From the NCBI RefSeq assembly GCF_036507355.1, contig NZ_AP027877.1: a stretch of DNA of 64,000 bases. One strand, 5' to 3'. Of the stretch, positions 41,501 to 47,500 are shown piece by piece. Each line of letters opens with the position of its first letter. Position 1 is the first letter of the stretch. This stretch comes from Escherichia coli (lineage in GTDB: Bacteria > Pseudomonadota > Gammaproteobacteria > Enterobacterales > Enterobacteriaceae). The position numbers are program-made.

Positions 41501-44500
41501 GGTCAGGCTGGTGATAACCTGAATGTGCTCGTTGTTGCGGGCAGCAATACCAATCACCAGACGGGCAATGTCATCTTCTTCTTCACCGAAGCGCACGCCT
41601 TCCGGGTACTGGCAGAACACAACACCCGTTTTCAGTACGCGATCTTTCGCTTCAACCGTACCGTGTGGCACCGCGATAGACTCACCCAGATAAGTCGGGG
41701 TCAGTTTTTCACGATCCAGCATCGCCTGAACGTATTCCGGCTCAACGTAACCGCCTTTCACCAGCTGCTCGCCAGCAAAACGAATCGCTTCTTCTTTGGT
41801 GGCAGCTTTGCGACCGAGGAAGATGTTCTCCGCGCCCAGTTTGAACAGGTTAGCACTGGAATCGTCAAAGCTGTCTTTCAGACTGTCTTTCACTTTCACT
41901 TCGTTTTCAGTATGGCGCTGGGCAGCAACCAGACGTTCGGTCAGGCTGGTGTACAGGCCGCTGTCGAGGAAGTTGGTCAGCGAAATATGCTGTGCCTGCG
42001 GAACCTGGCGCATAGCGCGTTCGGTCAGGTCACGGTGAGTGATGACGAGGTCCACATCTGGCGGCAGGTTGTTGATCGCGCTGTTAGTGACCGAAATCTG
42101 CGACAGACCTGCATCCTGAATTTTCTTACGCAGCACGCCTGCGCCCATCGCACTTGAACCCATACCGGCGTCACAGGCAACGATGATTTTACGTACGTGG
42201 CTCAGGTCGTTAGTCACATCGCCCGCAGACAGCGGAGATGCACCTTTAGACTCAGCTTTCATGTCCTGCATACGACGAGTTGCTGCTTCAATATCATCTT
42301 CTTCTTTCACTTTGCTGGTTTTCAGCAAAATAGCAGAGACAACAAAGGAGACAGCCATCGCCGCACACACACCCGCGATGTTAGCGAAATAAGCACCTTT
42401 TGGTGTCATCGCCAGTACAGCAAGGATAGAACCCGGAGACGCCGGAGAAACCAGACCACCGCCCAGGATAGTCAGCGTGAACACGCCAGTCATACCGCCG
42501 AGGATAACGGCCAGGATCAGACGCGGATTCATCAGCACATACGGGAAGTAGATTTCGTGGATACCACCCAGGAAGTGGATGATTGCCGCACCGCCCGCAG
42601 ACTGTTTAGCGCTACCACGACCAAAGAACATGTACGCCAGCAGCACGCCCATACCTGGACCTGGGTTAGCTTCAATCAGGAAGAATATGGATTTACCCAG
42701 TTCATGGGACTGCTGAATACCCAGCGGCGAGAAGATACCGTGGTTAATGGCGTTGTTGAGGAACAGGATTTTCGCCGGTTCAACAAAGATAGACGCCAGC
42801 GGCAGCATGTCATGGACAACCATGAAGTTAACGCCCGCAGCCAGCATTTTGGACAGGGCTTCAACAATCGGGCCAATGCCGAGAAATGCCAGAATGGCGA
42901 GGATCATCCCGATGATGCCTGCGGAGAAGTTATTCACCAGCATCTCAAAACCGGATTTGATCTTACCGTCTACCCAGCGGTCGAAGTGCTTAATGCACCA
43001 GCCGCCCAGCGGACCTGCAATCATAGAACCGAGGAACATCGGCATGTCTGCGCCGACGATAACGCCCATGGTGGTGATGGCACCGACTACGCCGCCACGT
43101 TCGCCGCCTACCAGCTTACCACCGGTATAACCGATCAGCAGCGGCAGGAGGTAAGTGATCATCGGTCCGACTAGCTTCGCCAGCGTCTCGTTCGGTAACC
43201 ACCCTGTTGGAATAAATAACGCGGTGATGATACCCCACGCGATAAACGCGCCGATATTTGGCATCACCATGTTGCTGAGGAAACGACCAAAGCTTTGCAC
43301 TTTGATCTTAATATCGGATGACATAAAAACACCCCTTCTTATGTTTGCTGTCGCGCAGGCTGGAAGCCCGAGGTTTTTTGTTAATGTGGCGGCAGAGGTA
43401 GCCGGACCTTGTAGATACTGCGAAATCTGGCACTGAATCGGTTAACTGTCCAGTCGACGGTCTTTTGTGTGATATCAATCACATAAATATAGGGGGTAGA
43501 GAGGTAATTGACGTGACGTTCATCACAAAACGCTTGTGTGAAAAAGCAACAAGGCGGCGATTTTCGCTAAAAATGGCATTTAAATGTGAGTAGTGTCACA
43601 TTTTTGTTTTGACGGTTTGTTGAATCTTTGTGATCTGAATCACAAGATATTTTCTTACGGCGTTCACCTGATGTGATCTACAGCATGTTATGCCTTCGTC
43701 ATACAATCGTTATGTAACTAAGCAACTCATCACCTCTAAAAATTATTCTTTGGTGTTATGGCGAGAATCGCGAACCCGGATTATTGTCAAAATATCAGCC
43801 TGACTCCCTTCTGGCTGCCAGCCAAAAAACAACACTGATAAACGTGAATCCGAGGCAGATATGTTTCTAAACTATTTCGCGTTGGGAGTGCTGATCTTCG
43901 TCTTTCTGGTGATTTTTTATGGAATCATCGCGATACATGACATCCCTTATCTGATTGCCAAAAAGCGCAACCATCCCCATGCCGACGCTATTCATACGGC
44001 GGGCTGGGTGAGCCTGTTTACTCTGCATGTTATCTGGCCGTTTCTGTGGATCTGGGCGACGCTCTATCAACCGGAGCGTGGCTGGGGTATGCAGTCACAT
44101 GTTGCGTCGCAGGAGAAAGCGACTGACCCGGAAATCGCCGCACTTTCTGACCGAATTTCCCGGCTGGAGCATCAACTCGCCGCCGAGAAAAAGACTGACT
44201 ATTCCACGTTCCCGGAGATCTAATTATGGATCTATTGATTGTTTTAACTTACGTGGCGCTGGCGTGGGCGGTCTTTAAAATCTTTCGTATTCCGGTGAAT
44301 CAGTGGACGCTGGCGACGGCGGCGCTGGGAGGCGTGTTTCTGGTGAGTGGTTTGATTTTGTTGATGAACTACAACCACCCTTACACTTTTACCGCGCAAA
44401 AGGCAGTGATAGCGATCCCTATCACGCCACAGGTGACGGGAATTGTTACTGAAGTCACTGATAAGAATAATCAGCTTATTCAAAAGGGCGAGGTACTTTT

Positions 44501-47500
44501 TAAGCTCGACCCGGTTCGTTACCAGGCGCGAGTTGACAGACTTCAGGCTGACCTGATGACGGCGACGCATAATATAAAAACGCTGCGCGCCCAGCTCACT
44601 GAAGCGCAGGCCAACACCACCCAGGTTTCAGCGGAGCGCGACCGTCTGTTTAAAAATTATCAACGTTACCTGAAAGGCAGCCAGGCGGCGGTGAATCCGT
44701 TCTCGGAACGTGACATCGACGATGCGCGGCAAAATTTCCTCGCGCAGGATGCGCTGGTGAAAGGCTCGGTGGCGGAGCAGGCGCAGATCCAGAGCCAGCT
44801 CGACAGTATGGTTAACGGCGAGCAATCGCAGATTGTGAGCTTAAGAGCGCAACTTACAGAAGCAAAATATAACCTTGAACAGACCGTCATTCGCGCACCG
44901 AGCAATGGCTACGTCACTCAGGTACTGATCCGCCCAGGCACATACGCCGCTGCCTTGCCGCTGCGTCCGGTGATGGTCTTCATCCCCGAGCAAAAACGGC
45001 AAATTGTCGCCCAATTTCGGCAAAACTCGCTGTTACGTCTGAAACCTGGCGATGATGCGGAAGTGGTGTTTAACGCGCTACCTGGGCAGGTGTTCCACGG
45101 CAAACTGACCAGTATTTTACCAGTCGTGCCAGGCGGTTCTTATCAGGCGCAGGGGGTATTGCAATCATTAACGGTCGTGCCCGGCACGGACGGTGTGCTG
45201 GGAACCATTGAACTGGACCCTAACGATGATATCGATGCCTTACCCGACGGCATCTACGCCCAGGTGGCAGTTTACTCCGACCATTTCAGCCATGTTTCGG
45301 TGATGCGGAAAGTGCTGCTAAGAATGACCAGCTGGATGCATTATCTTTATTTGGATCATTGAGACTTATATCACCTGTGTTTTGCGTGAGCCTGAGCCAT
45401 ACTGATATTTTTCCTCGCACAAAGGACTCGGCATGAAACTCGTCGGTAGCTACACCAGCCCGTTTGTACGCAAACTTTCTATTCTGTTGTTAGAAAAGGG
45501 CATAACTTTCGAATTTATTAATGAACTGCCCTATAACGCGGACAACGGCGTGGCGCAATTTAACCCGTTAGGAAAAGTGCCGGTGCTGGTGACCGAAGAG
45601 GGCGAATGCTGGTTTGATTCGCCGATCATCGCTGAATATATTGAGTTAATGAATGTCGCTCCGGCGATGTTGCCGCGCGATCCGCTGGAGTCGTTGCGGG
45701 TGCGCAAAATTGAGGCGCTGGCGGATGGCATTATGGATGCCGGGCTGGTATCGGTGCGTGAACAGGCGCGTCCAGCGGCGCAGCAGTCTGAAGATGAATT
45801 GTTACGCCAGCGGGAGAAAATCAACCGCAGCCTGGATGTGCTGGAAGGATATCTGGTCGATGGCACACTCAAAACTGATACGGTCAATCTGGCGACTATC
45901 GCCATTGCCTGTGCCGTCGGGTATCTCAATTTCCGCCGCGTTGCGCCAGGCTGGTGTGTCGACCGCCCACACTTAGTCAAACTGGTCGAAAACCTGTTTA
46001 GCCGCGAAAGTTTTGCTCGCACCGAACCGCCAAAGGCTTGATGCGCGATATGTCCTCCTGACCCATCTCACGTTACAATCCGTGGTTATGTTAAACGCCC
46101 TTCTCCGTGTGAGAGGGCCTTGATCAGCCAGGTTTCCTATGACAACCGAAACGCGTTCTCTCTATAGTCAACTTCCGGCTATTGATCGCTTATTGCGCGA
46201 TAGCTCCTTCCTTTCTTTGCGTGATACTTATGGTCACACCCGCGTGGTGGAATTGTTGCGTCAGATGCTCGACGAAGCGCGAGAAGTGATTCGTGACAGC
46301 CAGACGCTGCCTGCGTGGTGTGAAAACTGGGCGCAAGAAGTCGATGCCCGGTTGACGAAAGAGGCGCAGAGCGCGCTGCGTCCGGTGATAAACCTGACGG
46401 GAACCGTGCTGCATACCAATCTTGGGCGAGCTTTACAGGCGGAAGCTGCGGTGGAAGCCGTTGCGCAGGCTATGCGTTCGCCAGTGACCCTCGAGTACGA
46501 TTTGGACGACGCCGGACGCGGACATCGCGATCGGGCGCTGGCGCAGCTGCTGTGCCGCATTACCGGCGCGGAAGATGCCTGTATCGTTAATAACAATGCG
46601 GCGGCGGTGTTATTGATGTTGGCGGCCACTGCCAGCGGGAAAGAGGTGGTGGTTTCTCGCGGCGAATTGGTGGAGATTGGCGGCGCGTTTCGTATTCCCG
46701 ATGTTATGCGTCAGGCAGGCTGCACACTACACGAAGTAGGGACCACCAACCGCACGCACGCGAATGATTATCGTCAGGCGGTGAATGAAAATACCGCACT
46801 GTTGATGAAAGTACATACCAGTAACTACAGCATTCAGGGGTTCACCAAAGCGATAGACGAAGCTGAACTGGTGGCGCTCGGCAAAGAGCTGGATGTTCCC
46901 GTAGTGACTGATTTAGGCAGTGGCTCGCTGGTCGATCTTAGCCAGTACGGTTTGCCGAAAGAGCCAATGCCGCAGGAGTTGATTGCGACGGGCGTCAGTC
47001 TGGTGAGCTTCTCCGGCGACAAGTTGTTAGGCGGGCCGCAGGCAGGGATTATCGTTGGTAAAAAAGAGATGATCGCCCGCCTGCAAAGCCACCCGCTGAA
47101 GCGTGCATTACGCGCGGATAAAATGACCCTCGCGGCGTTGGAAGCCACGTTGCGTCTTTATTTACACCCTGAAGCTCTGAGTGAAAAATTACCGACCCTG
47201 CGCCTGCTTACCCGCAGCGCAGAGGTCATTCAAATCCAGGCACAACGTTTACAGGCTCCCCTTGCCGCACATTACGGCGCGGAGTTTGCGGTACAGGTTA
47301 TGCCATGTCTTTCGCAGATTGGCAGTGGTTCGCTGCCGGTTGATCGCCTGCCGAGCGCAGCATTAACGTTTACACCCCATGATGGACGCGGTAGCCACCT
47401 TGAGTCATTAGCCGCCCGCTGGCGTGAATTGCCAGTGCCGGTGATTGGTCGTATTTATGACGGACGATTGTGGCTGGATTTACGCTGCCTTGAAGATGAG

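Follow-up and report, generated by a model that had tools for sequence, protein, structure and literature searches.

The yibI and yibH genes lie one behind the other in the window analysed here, a 64-kb stretch of Escherichia coli DNA, and encode a small inner-membrane protein and a periplasmic adaptor, respectively (Table 1). The open reading frames agreed exactly with the original prediction, in which a two-TM protein of 120 residues was followed 2 nt later by an HlyD protein of 378 residues at 43861-45362: the TAA stop codon of yibI occupies 44221-44223 and the ATG of yibH begins at 44226. This 2-nt gap implies that the two genes would form a translationally coupled operon. The annotated pair was found in 5424 of 5426 complete E. 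coli genomes. Within the annotated 13 kb on either side, no pump or OMF gene tied to yibI-yibH was found; the nearest transporter-type genes were mtlA (PTS), lldP and, at a distance of about 13 kb and beside a GH127 gene, one of the MFS type.

Table 1. Features of the yibI-yibH region, its upstream sites and the paralogous pair (residue numbers refer to the encoded proteins).
Feature	Position	Strand	Description	Basis
Perfect CRP palindromes (three)	43468-43483, 43585-43600, 43629-43644	.	mtlA-yibI intergenic region	
yibI	43861..44223	+	120-aa DUF3302 inner-membrane protein	ORF; Pfam PF11742; AF2 pLDDT 86
YibI TM helix 1, residues 2-26	43864..43938	+	less conserved of the two helices	AF2; conservation profile
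YibI conserved loop, residues 27-40	43939..43980	+	DIPYLIAKKRNHPH	alignment; non-redundant conservation; AF2
YibI TM helix 2, residues 41-68	43981..44064	+		alignment; AF2; conservation
YibI C-terminal tail helix, residues 90-113	44128..44199	+		AF2 H90-113; alignments
GGAG Shine-Dalgarno of yibH	44214..44217	+	inside yibI 3' end	sequence
yibH	44226..45362	+	378-aa EmrA-like periplasmic adaptor (HlyD family), DUF3302-linked subfamily	Pfam; NCBIfam; AF2; Foldseek
YibH N-terminal TM pair, residues 2-19 and 26-50	44229..44375	+	subfamily hallmark	AF2; alignments
YibH coiled-coil hairpin, residues 97-218	44514..44879	+		AF2; Foldseek
YibH C-terminal helix, residues 355-374	45288..45347	+	subfamily hallmark	alignments; AF2
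yiaW	52960..53283	+	yibI paralogue, 107 aa from ATG	
yiaV	53289..54425	+	yibH paralogue, 378 aa	

The region between yibI and the divergent mtlA had been described as a shared regulatory region with two perfect CRP sites. The divergent arrangement was borne out, and the number of sites had to be corrected to three: these are the only perfect TGTGA-N6-TCACA sites in the whole window (0.1 expected). Upstream of DUF3302 genes, perfect CRP sites were found, among the loci compared, only where mtlA was the divergent neighbour, and none was present at the yiaW-type, Kluyvera, Serratia, Rahnella or distant DUF3302 loci. Because their presence tracks mtlA, the palindromes are, judged by this distribution, sites that belong with mtlA and not a conserved part of the yibI-yibH module; CRP sites kept with the module across relatives, as expected of a CRP-regulated operon, were not found.

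YibI matched DUF3302 (PF11742) with an E-value of 3.3e-41 over positions 1-76 of the 77 in the model, which places it in this family; its relatives formed 819 clusters at 50% identity. Two TM helices (H2-26 and H41-68, pLDDT 94-97) and a short helix within the loop (residues 28-35) were predicted by AlphaFold2. The stretch HDIPYLIAKKRNHPHADAIH, identical in YibI and its paralogue YiaW, had been called strictly conserved; in a non-redundant family sample this holds only for P29, A33, H38 and P39, which are invariant there, and R36 is 91% conserved. The second TM helix is rich in Trp and shows conservation on every face (W49, S51, L52, W59, P60 and W65), and after a linker of variable length the tail helix shows a conserved heptad pattern, L-x-x-R-I/V-x-x-L-E-x-x-L. 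According to the conservation profile, conserved His and Asp residues stand near the membrane boundary (H38 invariant, H56 83%, D27 74%). No conserved pore-lining face was detected in YibI, the second helix being without a significant conservation moment, and within the TM helices no acidic residue was invariant in the family. The positive-inside rule gave a weak indication of topology (K+R of 2.98 in the loop vs 2.24 in the flanks; 64% of sequences). No structural relative was found by Foldseek (best E 1.7), and no PADLOC anti-phage defence model matched YibI.

Based on Pfam (CusB_dom_1, HlyD_D23 and Biotin_lipoyl_2) and the AF2 model (pLDDT 83), YibH consists of a lipoyl (barrel-sandwich) domain split by a coiled-coil hairpin and followed by a beta-barrel, with two N-terminal TM helices (H2-19 and H26-50) as inner-membrane anchor, and it was therefore assigned to the HlyD superfamily. 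Foldseek returned 73 PDB adaptor chains at E <= 0.001. The best match was EmrA of EmrAB-TolC (8zal_A; E 2.5e-21, TM-score 0.60-0.66), with whose hairpin that of YibH is colinear except for a 2-residue indel at the tip, and the second best was MacA (E about 1e-16). As an equivalog of EmrA/EmrK (TIGR00998; 113.5 bits vs a cutoff of 390.8), MdtN (110.9 vs 376), AaeA (75.1 vs 400) or EmrA (57.1 vs 563), YibH was rejected, all scores falling under the NCBI curated cutoffs; the sole NCBIfam model that it passed was the generic TIGR01730 RND_mfp (99.9 vs 94.9). An assignment as a PADLOC defence protein was likewise discarded, since the matches were of the coiled-coil type only (E 0.005).

A DUF3302-linked adaptor subfamily was defined here by the N-terminal TM pair, a C-terminal helix R-K-x-L-L-R-M-x-x-W and a DUF3302 gene directly upstream, all of which are found for YibH. 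The TM-pair region carries a conserved FKxFxIPxNxW loop and an MNYNHPY exit motif. In the subfamily alignments M47 and P52, as well as R361, L364 and R366 of the C-terminal helix, are invariant, and this helix is 97% identical between YibH and YiaV. Both protein hallmarks are kept from E. coli to Bacteroidota-like relatives; the hairpin varies in length.

A second DUF3302-adaptor pair, yiaW-yiaV, which the original prediction had overlooked, is located 9 kb downstream of yibI-yibH. YiaW is 73% identical to YibI overall and 92.5% over the first 80 codons, and YiaV is 77% identical to YibH with no indels. Third codon positions are saturated (identity about 0.4) and the proteins 77-93% identical; the paralogous pairs are under purifying selection. 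About 30% of E. coli genomes lack yiaWV; yibIH is the core copy and yiaWV the accessory copy.

The co-occurrence of DUF3302 with this adaptor subtype proved tight in both directions. In 71 of 72 enterobacterial genome loci a YibH homologue (378 aa) directly followed the DUF3302 match, starting within about 40 nt; at two loci the distance was about 160 nt, the blast match there covering YibH from residue 35-36 onwards. The sole unpaired locus was cut by the contig end. Nearly all of the distant loci compared showed the pairing too, and it was observed in Rhizobium, Agrobacterium, Pseudoalteromonas, Aeromonas, Pantoea and metagenomes; in all relatives the spacing of the two genes ranged from -4 to +11 nt. 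When the YibH-specific N-terminal 60 residues were used as the query, 67 plasmid or chromid records were matched, and all 60 of the matches listed lay 90-400 nt downstream of a DUF3302 match on the same strand. DUF3302 and the YibH-type adaptor are an obligate pair.

The absence of an adjacent transporter, as originally noted, was confirmed in the window and extended to the relatives: no pump gene (ABC, MFS, RND or FUSC) adjoined the pair in the 72 enterobacterial loci or in some 20 distinct non-Enterobacterales loci that represent three phyla, and the unlabelled neighbouring ORFs contained no TM segments. The companion statement, that no outer-membrane channel is encoded nearby, applies to the window but not to six independent loci (Bacteroidota, Campylobacterota and metagenomes), in which a TolC-family OMF gene (PF02321) belongs to the same operon. 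The order is OMF-DUF3302-adaptor in L076, L087/L088, L089/L090 (Reichenbachiella, Bacteroidota) and L093, and DUF3302-adaptor-OMF in L091 and L095/L096 (Nitratifractor, Campylobacterota); none of the six operons includes a pump. These OMF genes make it probable that the YibIH-type system depends on an OMF, which in E. coli would be the product of the unlinked tolC. In L091, a complete FUSC-OMF-DUF1656-adaptor operon lies 3 kb from the DUF3302 operon, which indicates that a pump, where this genome uses one, is encoded within the operon. At two loci a secondary transporter gene stands behind the DUF3302 operon (a Na+/H+ exchanger in L091 and SulP in L080) and might encode a loosely linked partner; these families do not recur.

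Among known systems, EmrAB-TolC (PDB 8zal/8zar) resembles the module in that EmrA and YibH share the order anchor, lipoyl domain, long hairpin and beta-barrel without a membrane-proximal domain, and in the linkage of OMF genes in YibH relatives. It differs in that YibH has a second N-terminal TM helix and the extra conserved C-terminal helix, that its loci hold no EmrB-like or other pump gene, and that its constant partner is the 2-TM DUF3302 protein. The AaeXAB/MdtNOP/YdhIJK-type systems combine a FUSC/PET exporter, an adaptor and a small DUF1656 protein. As in the example in L091, they have a small two-helix protein gene directly upstream of the adaptor gene, an OMF gene that may sit in the operon, and adaptors related to YibH (hhalign probability 99.6% over YibH residues 50-349); however, their operons contain the FUSC pump, which DUF3302 operons never do, and AaeA-type adaptors have neither the N-terminal TM pair nor the C-terminal helix. 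DUF3302 itself was rejected as a relative of DUF1656 or AaeX (hhalign probability 0.6%, 5 aligned columns). MacA is structurally near YibH and forms a hexameric funnel that docks TolC, but it has a membrane-proximal domain and the ABC transporter MacB, both of which are absent with YibH. AcrZ, a single helix, is likewise a very small inner-membrane protein tied to a tripartite system; it binds the pump and not the adaptor, and its gene is not beside an adaptor gene, whereas YibI has an obligate adaptor partner and is found conserved in several phyla.

No published function for yibI-yibH was found in the literature search, and both genes were still counted as uncharacterised in 2024 (PMC11551758). 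A yibI mutant was outcompeted in urine (CI 0.33; PMC5404293), the Keio yibH strain was among the 15 most drug-sensitive, together with mdtN, acrB and tolQR (PMC9405208 Table 3), and deletion of yibH in K. pneumoniae gave fewer plaques by evolved phages (PMC11796411). These hints would fit a role in the envelope or in efflux. As a site for neutral integration, yibH has served with no defect reported (PMC5852967). Screens or single studies are the source of all these published phenotypes; those reported concern the envelope in a diffuse way (adhesion, transformation efficiency, plaque formation by phages and expression in biofilms).

Given the obligate pairing and the lack of an adjacent pump here and in about 20 distinct loci, the original view of the pair as an unconventional envelope complex is a fair reading. 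The constant association of adaptor and mini-protein across several phyla, at times joined by an OMF gene but at no locus by a pump gene, suggests a reduced export device that spans the envelope and is new to the literature. The best reading, to which we give slightly less than an even chance, is a TolC-docking complex with YibI in the place of the pump. YibI would be the dedicated inner-membrane partner of YibH in an obligate membrane complex. YibH would oligomerise, into a hexamer if it behaves like EmrA and MacA, dock with its hairpin tips on the outer-membrane channel TolC and turn its C-terminal helix back towards the membrane; an oligomer of YibI would be held by the TM pairs and C-terminal helices of YibH in the usual position of the inner-membrane pump. 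YibI, YibH and TolC would then make up a minimal, pump-less, envelope-spanning conduit, which may release a small solute or ion and contribute to envelope and drug tolerance. Here we infer the YibI-YibH contact, the hexameric stoichiometry, the docking on TolC in E. coli and the role of YibI as conduit. Against this reading, every adaptor characterised to our knowledge works with an energised transporter, and we know of no way in which a two-helix protein could power export. The missing pore-lining face and structural relative of YibI, its weakly indicated topology, the secondary transporter genes in L091 and L080, the neutral use of yibH as an integration site and the absence of yiaWV from many E. 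coli genomes also count against it. More tentatively, DUF3302 systems might constitute a further tripartite class, made up of OMF, adaptor and two-helix mini-protein without ABC, MFS, RND or FUSC, in which an oligomer of the mini-protein would act as a gated or proton-coupled inner-membrane conduit. In that case E. coli would possess a core and an accessory version of an exporter that depends on TolC and would have been overlooked because its inner-membrane component is unlike a pump.

The main rival, which we consider rather unlikely, is a conventional tripartite pump whose transporter is encoded elsewhere (e.g., an orphan MFS or a FUSC/PET-type exporter) and works with TolC, YibH being an ordinary adaptor and YibI an accessory protein like AcrZ or AaeX. 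The families nearest to YibH, namely EmrA/EmrK (113 bits), MdtN (111) and AaeA (75), serve MFS or FUSC-type pumps, its fold is nearest to EmrA bound to EmrB, and the DUF1656-adaptor order of the L091 FUSC operon matches that of DUF3302 and its adaptor. E. coli has FUSC-family and MFS proteins that are not known to have an assigned adaptor, which would also favour it. The transporter genes beside the operon in L091 and L080 could be read in the same way, but such neighbours do not recur in family, and a pump gene is adjacent at none of the loci compared, even where an OMF gene joined the operon in two gene orders. Moreover, the subfamily-specific membrane elements of YibH co-vary only with DUF3302, and DUF3302 is unrelated to DUF1656.

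Improbable in our judgement is a non-transport role, in which YibIH would be a periplasm-spanning tether, sensor or regulator with no substrate of its own, acting for example in TolC occupancy or gating or in envelope-state signalling. The lack of an energy-coupling module and of a clear pore-lining face among the features found, the diffuse envelope-related phenotypes and the leucine-zipper-like conserved helix of the YibI tail, which is suited to protein contacts, would fit such a role; however, the full tunnel-forming adaptor architecture is kept, with a hairpin tip colinear with EmrA, the operon has taken up OMF genes, as true export systems do, and the drug-sensitivity result points to efflux. 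A proton-driven, stator-like unit by analogy with GldL/GldM or ExbB/ExbD, with YibI placed round the YibH TM helices and the proton-motive force driving conformational work of the adaptor, is very improbable: GldL/PorL were the only Foldseek matches of YibI (E 1.7-7, not significant) and stand at chance level (probability 0.1), and although a small 2-TM protein with a periplasm-spanning, N-terminally TM-anchored partner is a loose parallel and the His/Asp residues H38, H56 and D27, close to the membrane boundary, are kept in most sequences, no TM helix has an invariant acidic residue, no sequence relationship to known stator families was found, and the YibH fold is that of a standard adaptor.

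If a TolC-docking complex with a 120-residue inner-membrane part is true, it would be a new architecture among tripartite efflux and secretion systems, and the OMF-bearing operons offer sets of three proteins, as they occur in nature, that could serve to reconstitute it. With it, four y-genes of E. coli (yibI, yibH, yiaW and yiaV) would be assigned together, and scattered phenotypes, namely urine fitness, macrolide sensitivity and phage plaque formation, might be explained.

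The yibI and yibH genes encode a DUF3302 mini-protein and an HlyD-type adaptor, and both open reading frames, the 2-nt spacer between the two genes, and the DUF3302 and HlyD/CusB matches were found in the window, a chromosome segment of E. coli type, as the original prediction had placed them. The yibH ATG is preceded, 8 nt upstream, by a GGAG motif. The observation is genuine, and annotation of both genes exists already: of 5426 complete E. coli genomes, 5424 carry the stretch, annotated as yibI/yibH. In most of the complete genomes the match stops immediately after the end of yibH and picks up again at yibF in another place; K-12-like strains have the rhsA island inserted at this break, and the lineage of the window is therefore one without the rhsA island. 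At every locus linked to mtlA, and at the Kluyvera loci, the glutathione S-transferase gene yibF lies downstream of yibH; in the window, nothing resembling a terminator was detected between yibH and yibF. Read-through transcription from yibH into yibF is possible, as is a putative functional link between a conjugating enzyme and an exporter. Two further features of the window were recorded: a REP-like repeat between mtlA and mtlD, through which the ORF finder reads, inflating the mtlD ORF to 488 aa, and a YadA-like trimeric autotransporter adhesin whose length differs between strains (1462 aa here, 1698 aa in the closest genome).

Features of the window around yibI-yibH and the paralogous pair yiaW-yiaV
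Feature	Coordinates	Strand	Description
YadA-like adhesin ORF	32198-36586	-	trimeric autotransporter adhesin
REP-like repeat	~41200-41400		between mtlA and mtlD
mtlD		-	flank of yibI
mtlA	41411-43324	-	flank of yibI
CRP palindromes	43468, 43585, 43629		perfect TGTGA-N6-TCACA
yibI	43861-44223	+	120 aa; Pfam DUF3302, full model, E 3.3e-41
yibH	44226-45362	+	378 aa; HlyD/CusB adaptor family matches (Pfam)
yibH-yibF spacer	45363-45432		70 nt
yibF	45433-46041	+	same strand as, and listed after, yibI-yibH
selA		+	same strand as, and listed after, yibI-yibH
selB		+	same strand as, and listed after, yibI-yibH
yiaW	52960-53283	+	107 aa; orientation as yibI; 9 kb downstream of yibI-yibH
yiaV	53289-54425	+	378 aa; orientation as yibH
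yiaV/yiaU overlap	54349-54425	+/-	convergent, 77 nt

Three perfect CRP palindromes, not two as had been counted, were found in the mtlA-yibI intergenic region, and they are the only ones in the whole 64 kb (0.1 expected). Among 98 loci, perfect sites occurred upstream of the DUF3302 gene only when mtlA was the divergent neighbour, and none was found at any yiaW-type, Kluyvera, Serratia, Rahnella, Pantoea or distant locus. As the sites follow mtlA, they were rejected as a component of the DUF3302-adaptor module; the three palindromes belong with mtlA.

The association of DUF3302 with the adaptor was analyzed in 72 genome loci, all from Enterobacterales, and in more distant contexts taken from metagenome contigs and plasmid records, a small taxonomic sample outside that order. 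A 378-aa YibH homolog was encoded directly downstream of DUF3302 in 71 of the 72 loci, the exception being cut off by a contig end. The same tandem was observed on Rhizobium, Agrobacterium, Pseudoalteromonas, Aeromonas and Pantoea replicons and on metagenome contigs; the two genes are spaced -4 to +11 nt apart in the distant loci, and their neighbors are different each time. In Rhizobium sullae, an 81-aa DUF3302 gene (36% identical) overlaps the start of the adaptor gene. The sole adaptor-less locus among the distant ones carries an IS5 element inserted behind DUF3302. The N-terminal 60 residues of YibH, absent from ordinary adaptors, served as query in the reverse search: matches were obtained in 67 plasmid or chromid records, and among the matches listed, 60 of 60 lay 90-400 nt downstream of a DUF3302 match on the same strand, with genus counts in agreement. 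DUF3302 and the YibH-type adaptor are an obligate pair in both directions. On two Rhizobiaceae plasmids (L083 8337-12288; L084 8254-10887), DUF1254/DUF1214 genes adjoin the pair, which may reflect shared ancestry or a functional link.

The window contains a second such pair, yiaW-yiaV. YibI and YiaW share 73% identity overall and 92.5% across the first 80 codons, and YibH and YiaV share 77% without indels. Third-codon-position identity between the pairs is saturated at ~0.4 (0.70 in the 30 codons at the 3' end of yibH/yiaV), so the duplication is old and the likeness of the proteins is due to purifying selection, recent gene conversion being rejected on the same value. Consistent differences between the YibH and YiaV lineages are concentrated in two places, residues 127-140 of the first hairpin helix and a loop of the beta-barrel modelled with low confidence (296-321), and the tails of YibI and YiaW also differ between lineages. 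The second pair is accessory, being carried by 3800 of the 5426 complete E. coli genomes; it is dispensable in the closest complete genome, FDAARGOS_943 (L094 19262-20426), where it was lost via an IS1-flanked deletion. In that genome, IS1A stands between yiaY and yiaT, both truncated, in place of aldB-yiaW-yiaV-yiaU. The overlap of yiaV with the LysR gene yiaU is listed among RNA-seq 'excludons' (PMC12288877). YiaU was rejected as a regulator of yiaWV, its published targets being yiaT and the waa operon (PMC9068703).

The AlphaFold2 model of YibH was confident (pLDDT 83) and comprised TM helices at 2-19 and 26-50, hairpin helices at 97-152 and 161-218, a beta-barrel and a C-terminal helix at 355-374, with no membrane-proximal domain. 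The top-ranked solved structure was EmrA from the EmrAB-TolC assembly (8zal_A, E 2.5e-21, TM-score 0.60-0.66), with MacA second, and the hairpins of YibH and EmrA are colinear except for a 2-residue indel at the tip. The nearest NCBIfam models (EmrA/EmrK, MdtN and AaeA) were all far under their curated cutoffs, and only the generic RND_mfp model was passed. When DUF3302-linked adaptors from E. coli through Bacteroidota-like relatives were aligned, the membrane elements were the most conserved parts: the N-terminal TM helix pair with its FKxFxIPxNxW loop and MNYNHPY exit motif, and the C-terminal helix R-K-x-L-L-R-M-x-x-W. M47, P52, R361, L364 and R366 are invariant, and the coiled-coil hairpin varies from ~125 residues down to ~55. 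For the AaeA-type adaptor of the metagenome locus L091, alignment to YibH was confined to residues 50-349, and neither the N-terminal TM pair nor the C-terminal helix is present.

In relatives ~50% identical to YibI, a TolC-family outer-membrane factor (OMF) gene (PF02321) lies within the operon. The order OMF-DUF3302-adaptor was found at L076, L087/L088, L089/L090 (a Reichenbachiella MAG, Bacteroidota) and L093, and the order DUF3302-adaptor-OMF at L091 and L095/L096 (Nitratifractor, Campylobacterota), giving six independent loci with two gene orders in at least two phyla and intergenic gaps of 2-16 nt. No ABC, MFS, RND or FUSC gene was found at the six loci, and hidden transporters among the unlabelled adjacent ORFs were rejected, as these ORFs had no TM segments. 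We tentatively propose that the pair forms a pump-less envelope-spanning conduit, with an EmrA-like YibH joined to TolC and YibI in the place of the pump. The main rival, which we regard as unlikely, holds that a canonical pump is encoded elsewhere and that YibI is its accessory subunit. Secondary transporter genes do adjoin the operon at two loci: at L091 (9001-12933) the DUF3302-adaptor-OMF operon is followed 12 nt on by a Na+/H+ exchanger gene, and at L080 the neighbor is a SulP gene; no transporter family recurs beside DUF3302 operons. A complete classical FUSC-OMF-DUF1656-adaptor operon (1957-6851) lies 3 kb from the DUF3302 operon of L091, in one metagenome-assembled genome, so the same genome keeps the pump gene in the operon when a pump is used.

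In the literature search, yibH, yibI, yiaW and DUF3302 appeared in no title or abstract, yiaV was confined to one abstract, that of a V. vulnificus GWAS paper, and no paper was found that treats TolC or membrane fusion proteins together with YibH or YiaV. Both yibH and yibI are among the uncharacterized genes of a 2024 y-ome survey (PMC11551758). Urine induces both yibI and yibH in UPEC, and a yibI mutant adhered less well and had a competitive index of 0.33 (PMC5404293). The 15 most sensitive strains in a published Table 3 include Keio yibH, beside mdtN, acrB, tolQ and tolR (PMC9405208); the caption names ornidazole, yet the top strains, betT and tyrP, are those given for azithromycin in the text and Figure 6, and the drug behind the sensitivity is therefore ambiguous as printed. 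Phage-resistant clones of K. pneumoniae carried mutations in yibH, and evolved phages formed fewer plaques when yibH was deleted (PMC11796411); an anti-phage defence system was rejected, as PADLOC gave no match. Deletion of yiaW reportedly raises transformation efficiency (cited in PMC12844161), IS1 insertions in yiaW arose in macrophage-evolved clones and alone had no phenotype (PMC5495878), and yibH has served as a neutral site for integration (PMC5852967). The published yibI, yibH and yiaW phenotypes are consistent with an envelope role and do not establish its mechanism; that YibIH acts as a non-transport tether or regulator is improbable.

The YibI prediction (pLDDT 86) comprised TM1 (2-26), a short loop helix (28-35) and TM2 (41-68), followed by a flexible linker and a tail helix (90-113) whose leucine-zipper-like pattern is conserved; the positive-inside rule gives a weak preference for the loop on the cytoplasmic side and the tail in the periplasm. 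The segment HDIPYLIAKKRNHPHADAIH, described as strictly conserved, is indeed identical in YiaW, but in a non-redundant family sample only its residues P29, A33, H38 and P39 are invariant, with R36 at 91%. A single conserved His/Trp pore-lining face on TM2, promising in the redundant sample, was rejected in the non-redundant set, where H38 is the only invariant histidine, all sides of TM2 are conserved and the conservation moment is not significant (reached by 2804 of 5000 shuffles). Conservation of TM2 and the loop on every face fits a helix buried among helices, with no pore identified, and a proton-driven stator-like unit is very improbable. No significant structural analog was found (best E 1.7), and the only PDB sequence relatives were designed coiled coils matching the tail. 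Homology of DUF3302 to DUF1656/AaeX was rejected (hhalign probability 0.6%).

In the proposed pump-less conduit, YibH would assemble as EmrA does and dock to TolC, and YibI would take the inner-membrane site that is normally a pump's, held by the membrane elements specific to the YibH subfamily; the outcome would be a minimal envelope-spanning conduit. The YibI-YibH contact, its stoichiometry, the docking to TolC in E. coli and the role of YibI in the conduit are accordingly presumptive elements of the model. The obligate pairing, the distinct adaptor subfamily and the pump-less OMF operons go beyond the existing annotation, and together they support the model of a pump-less, TolC-dependent system.
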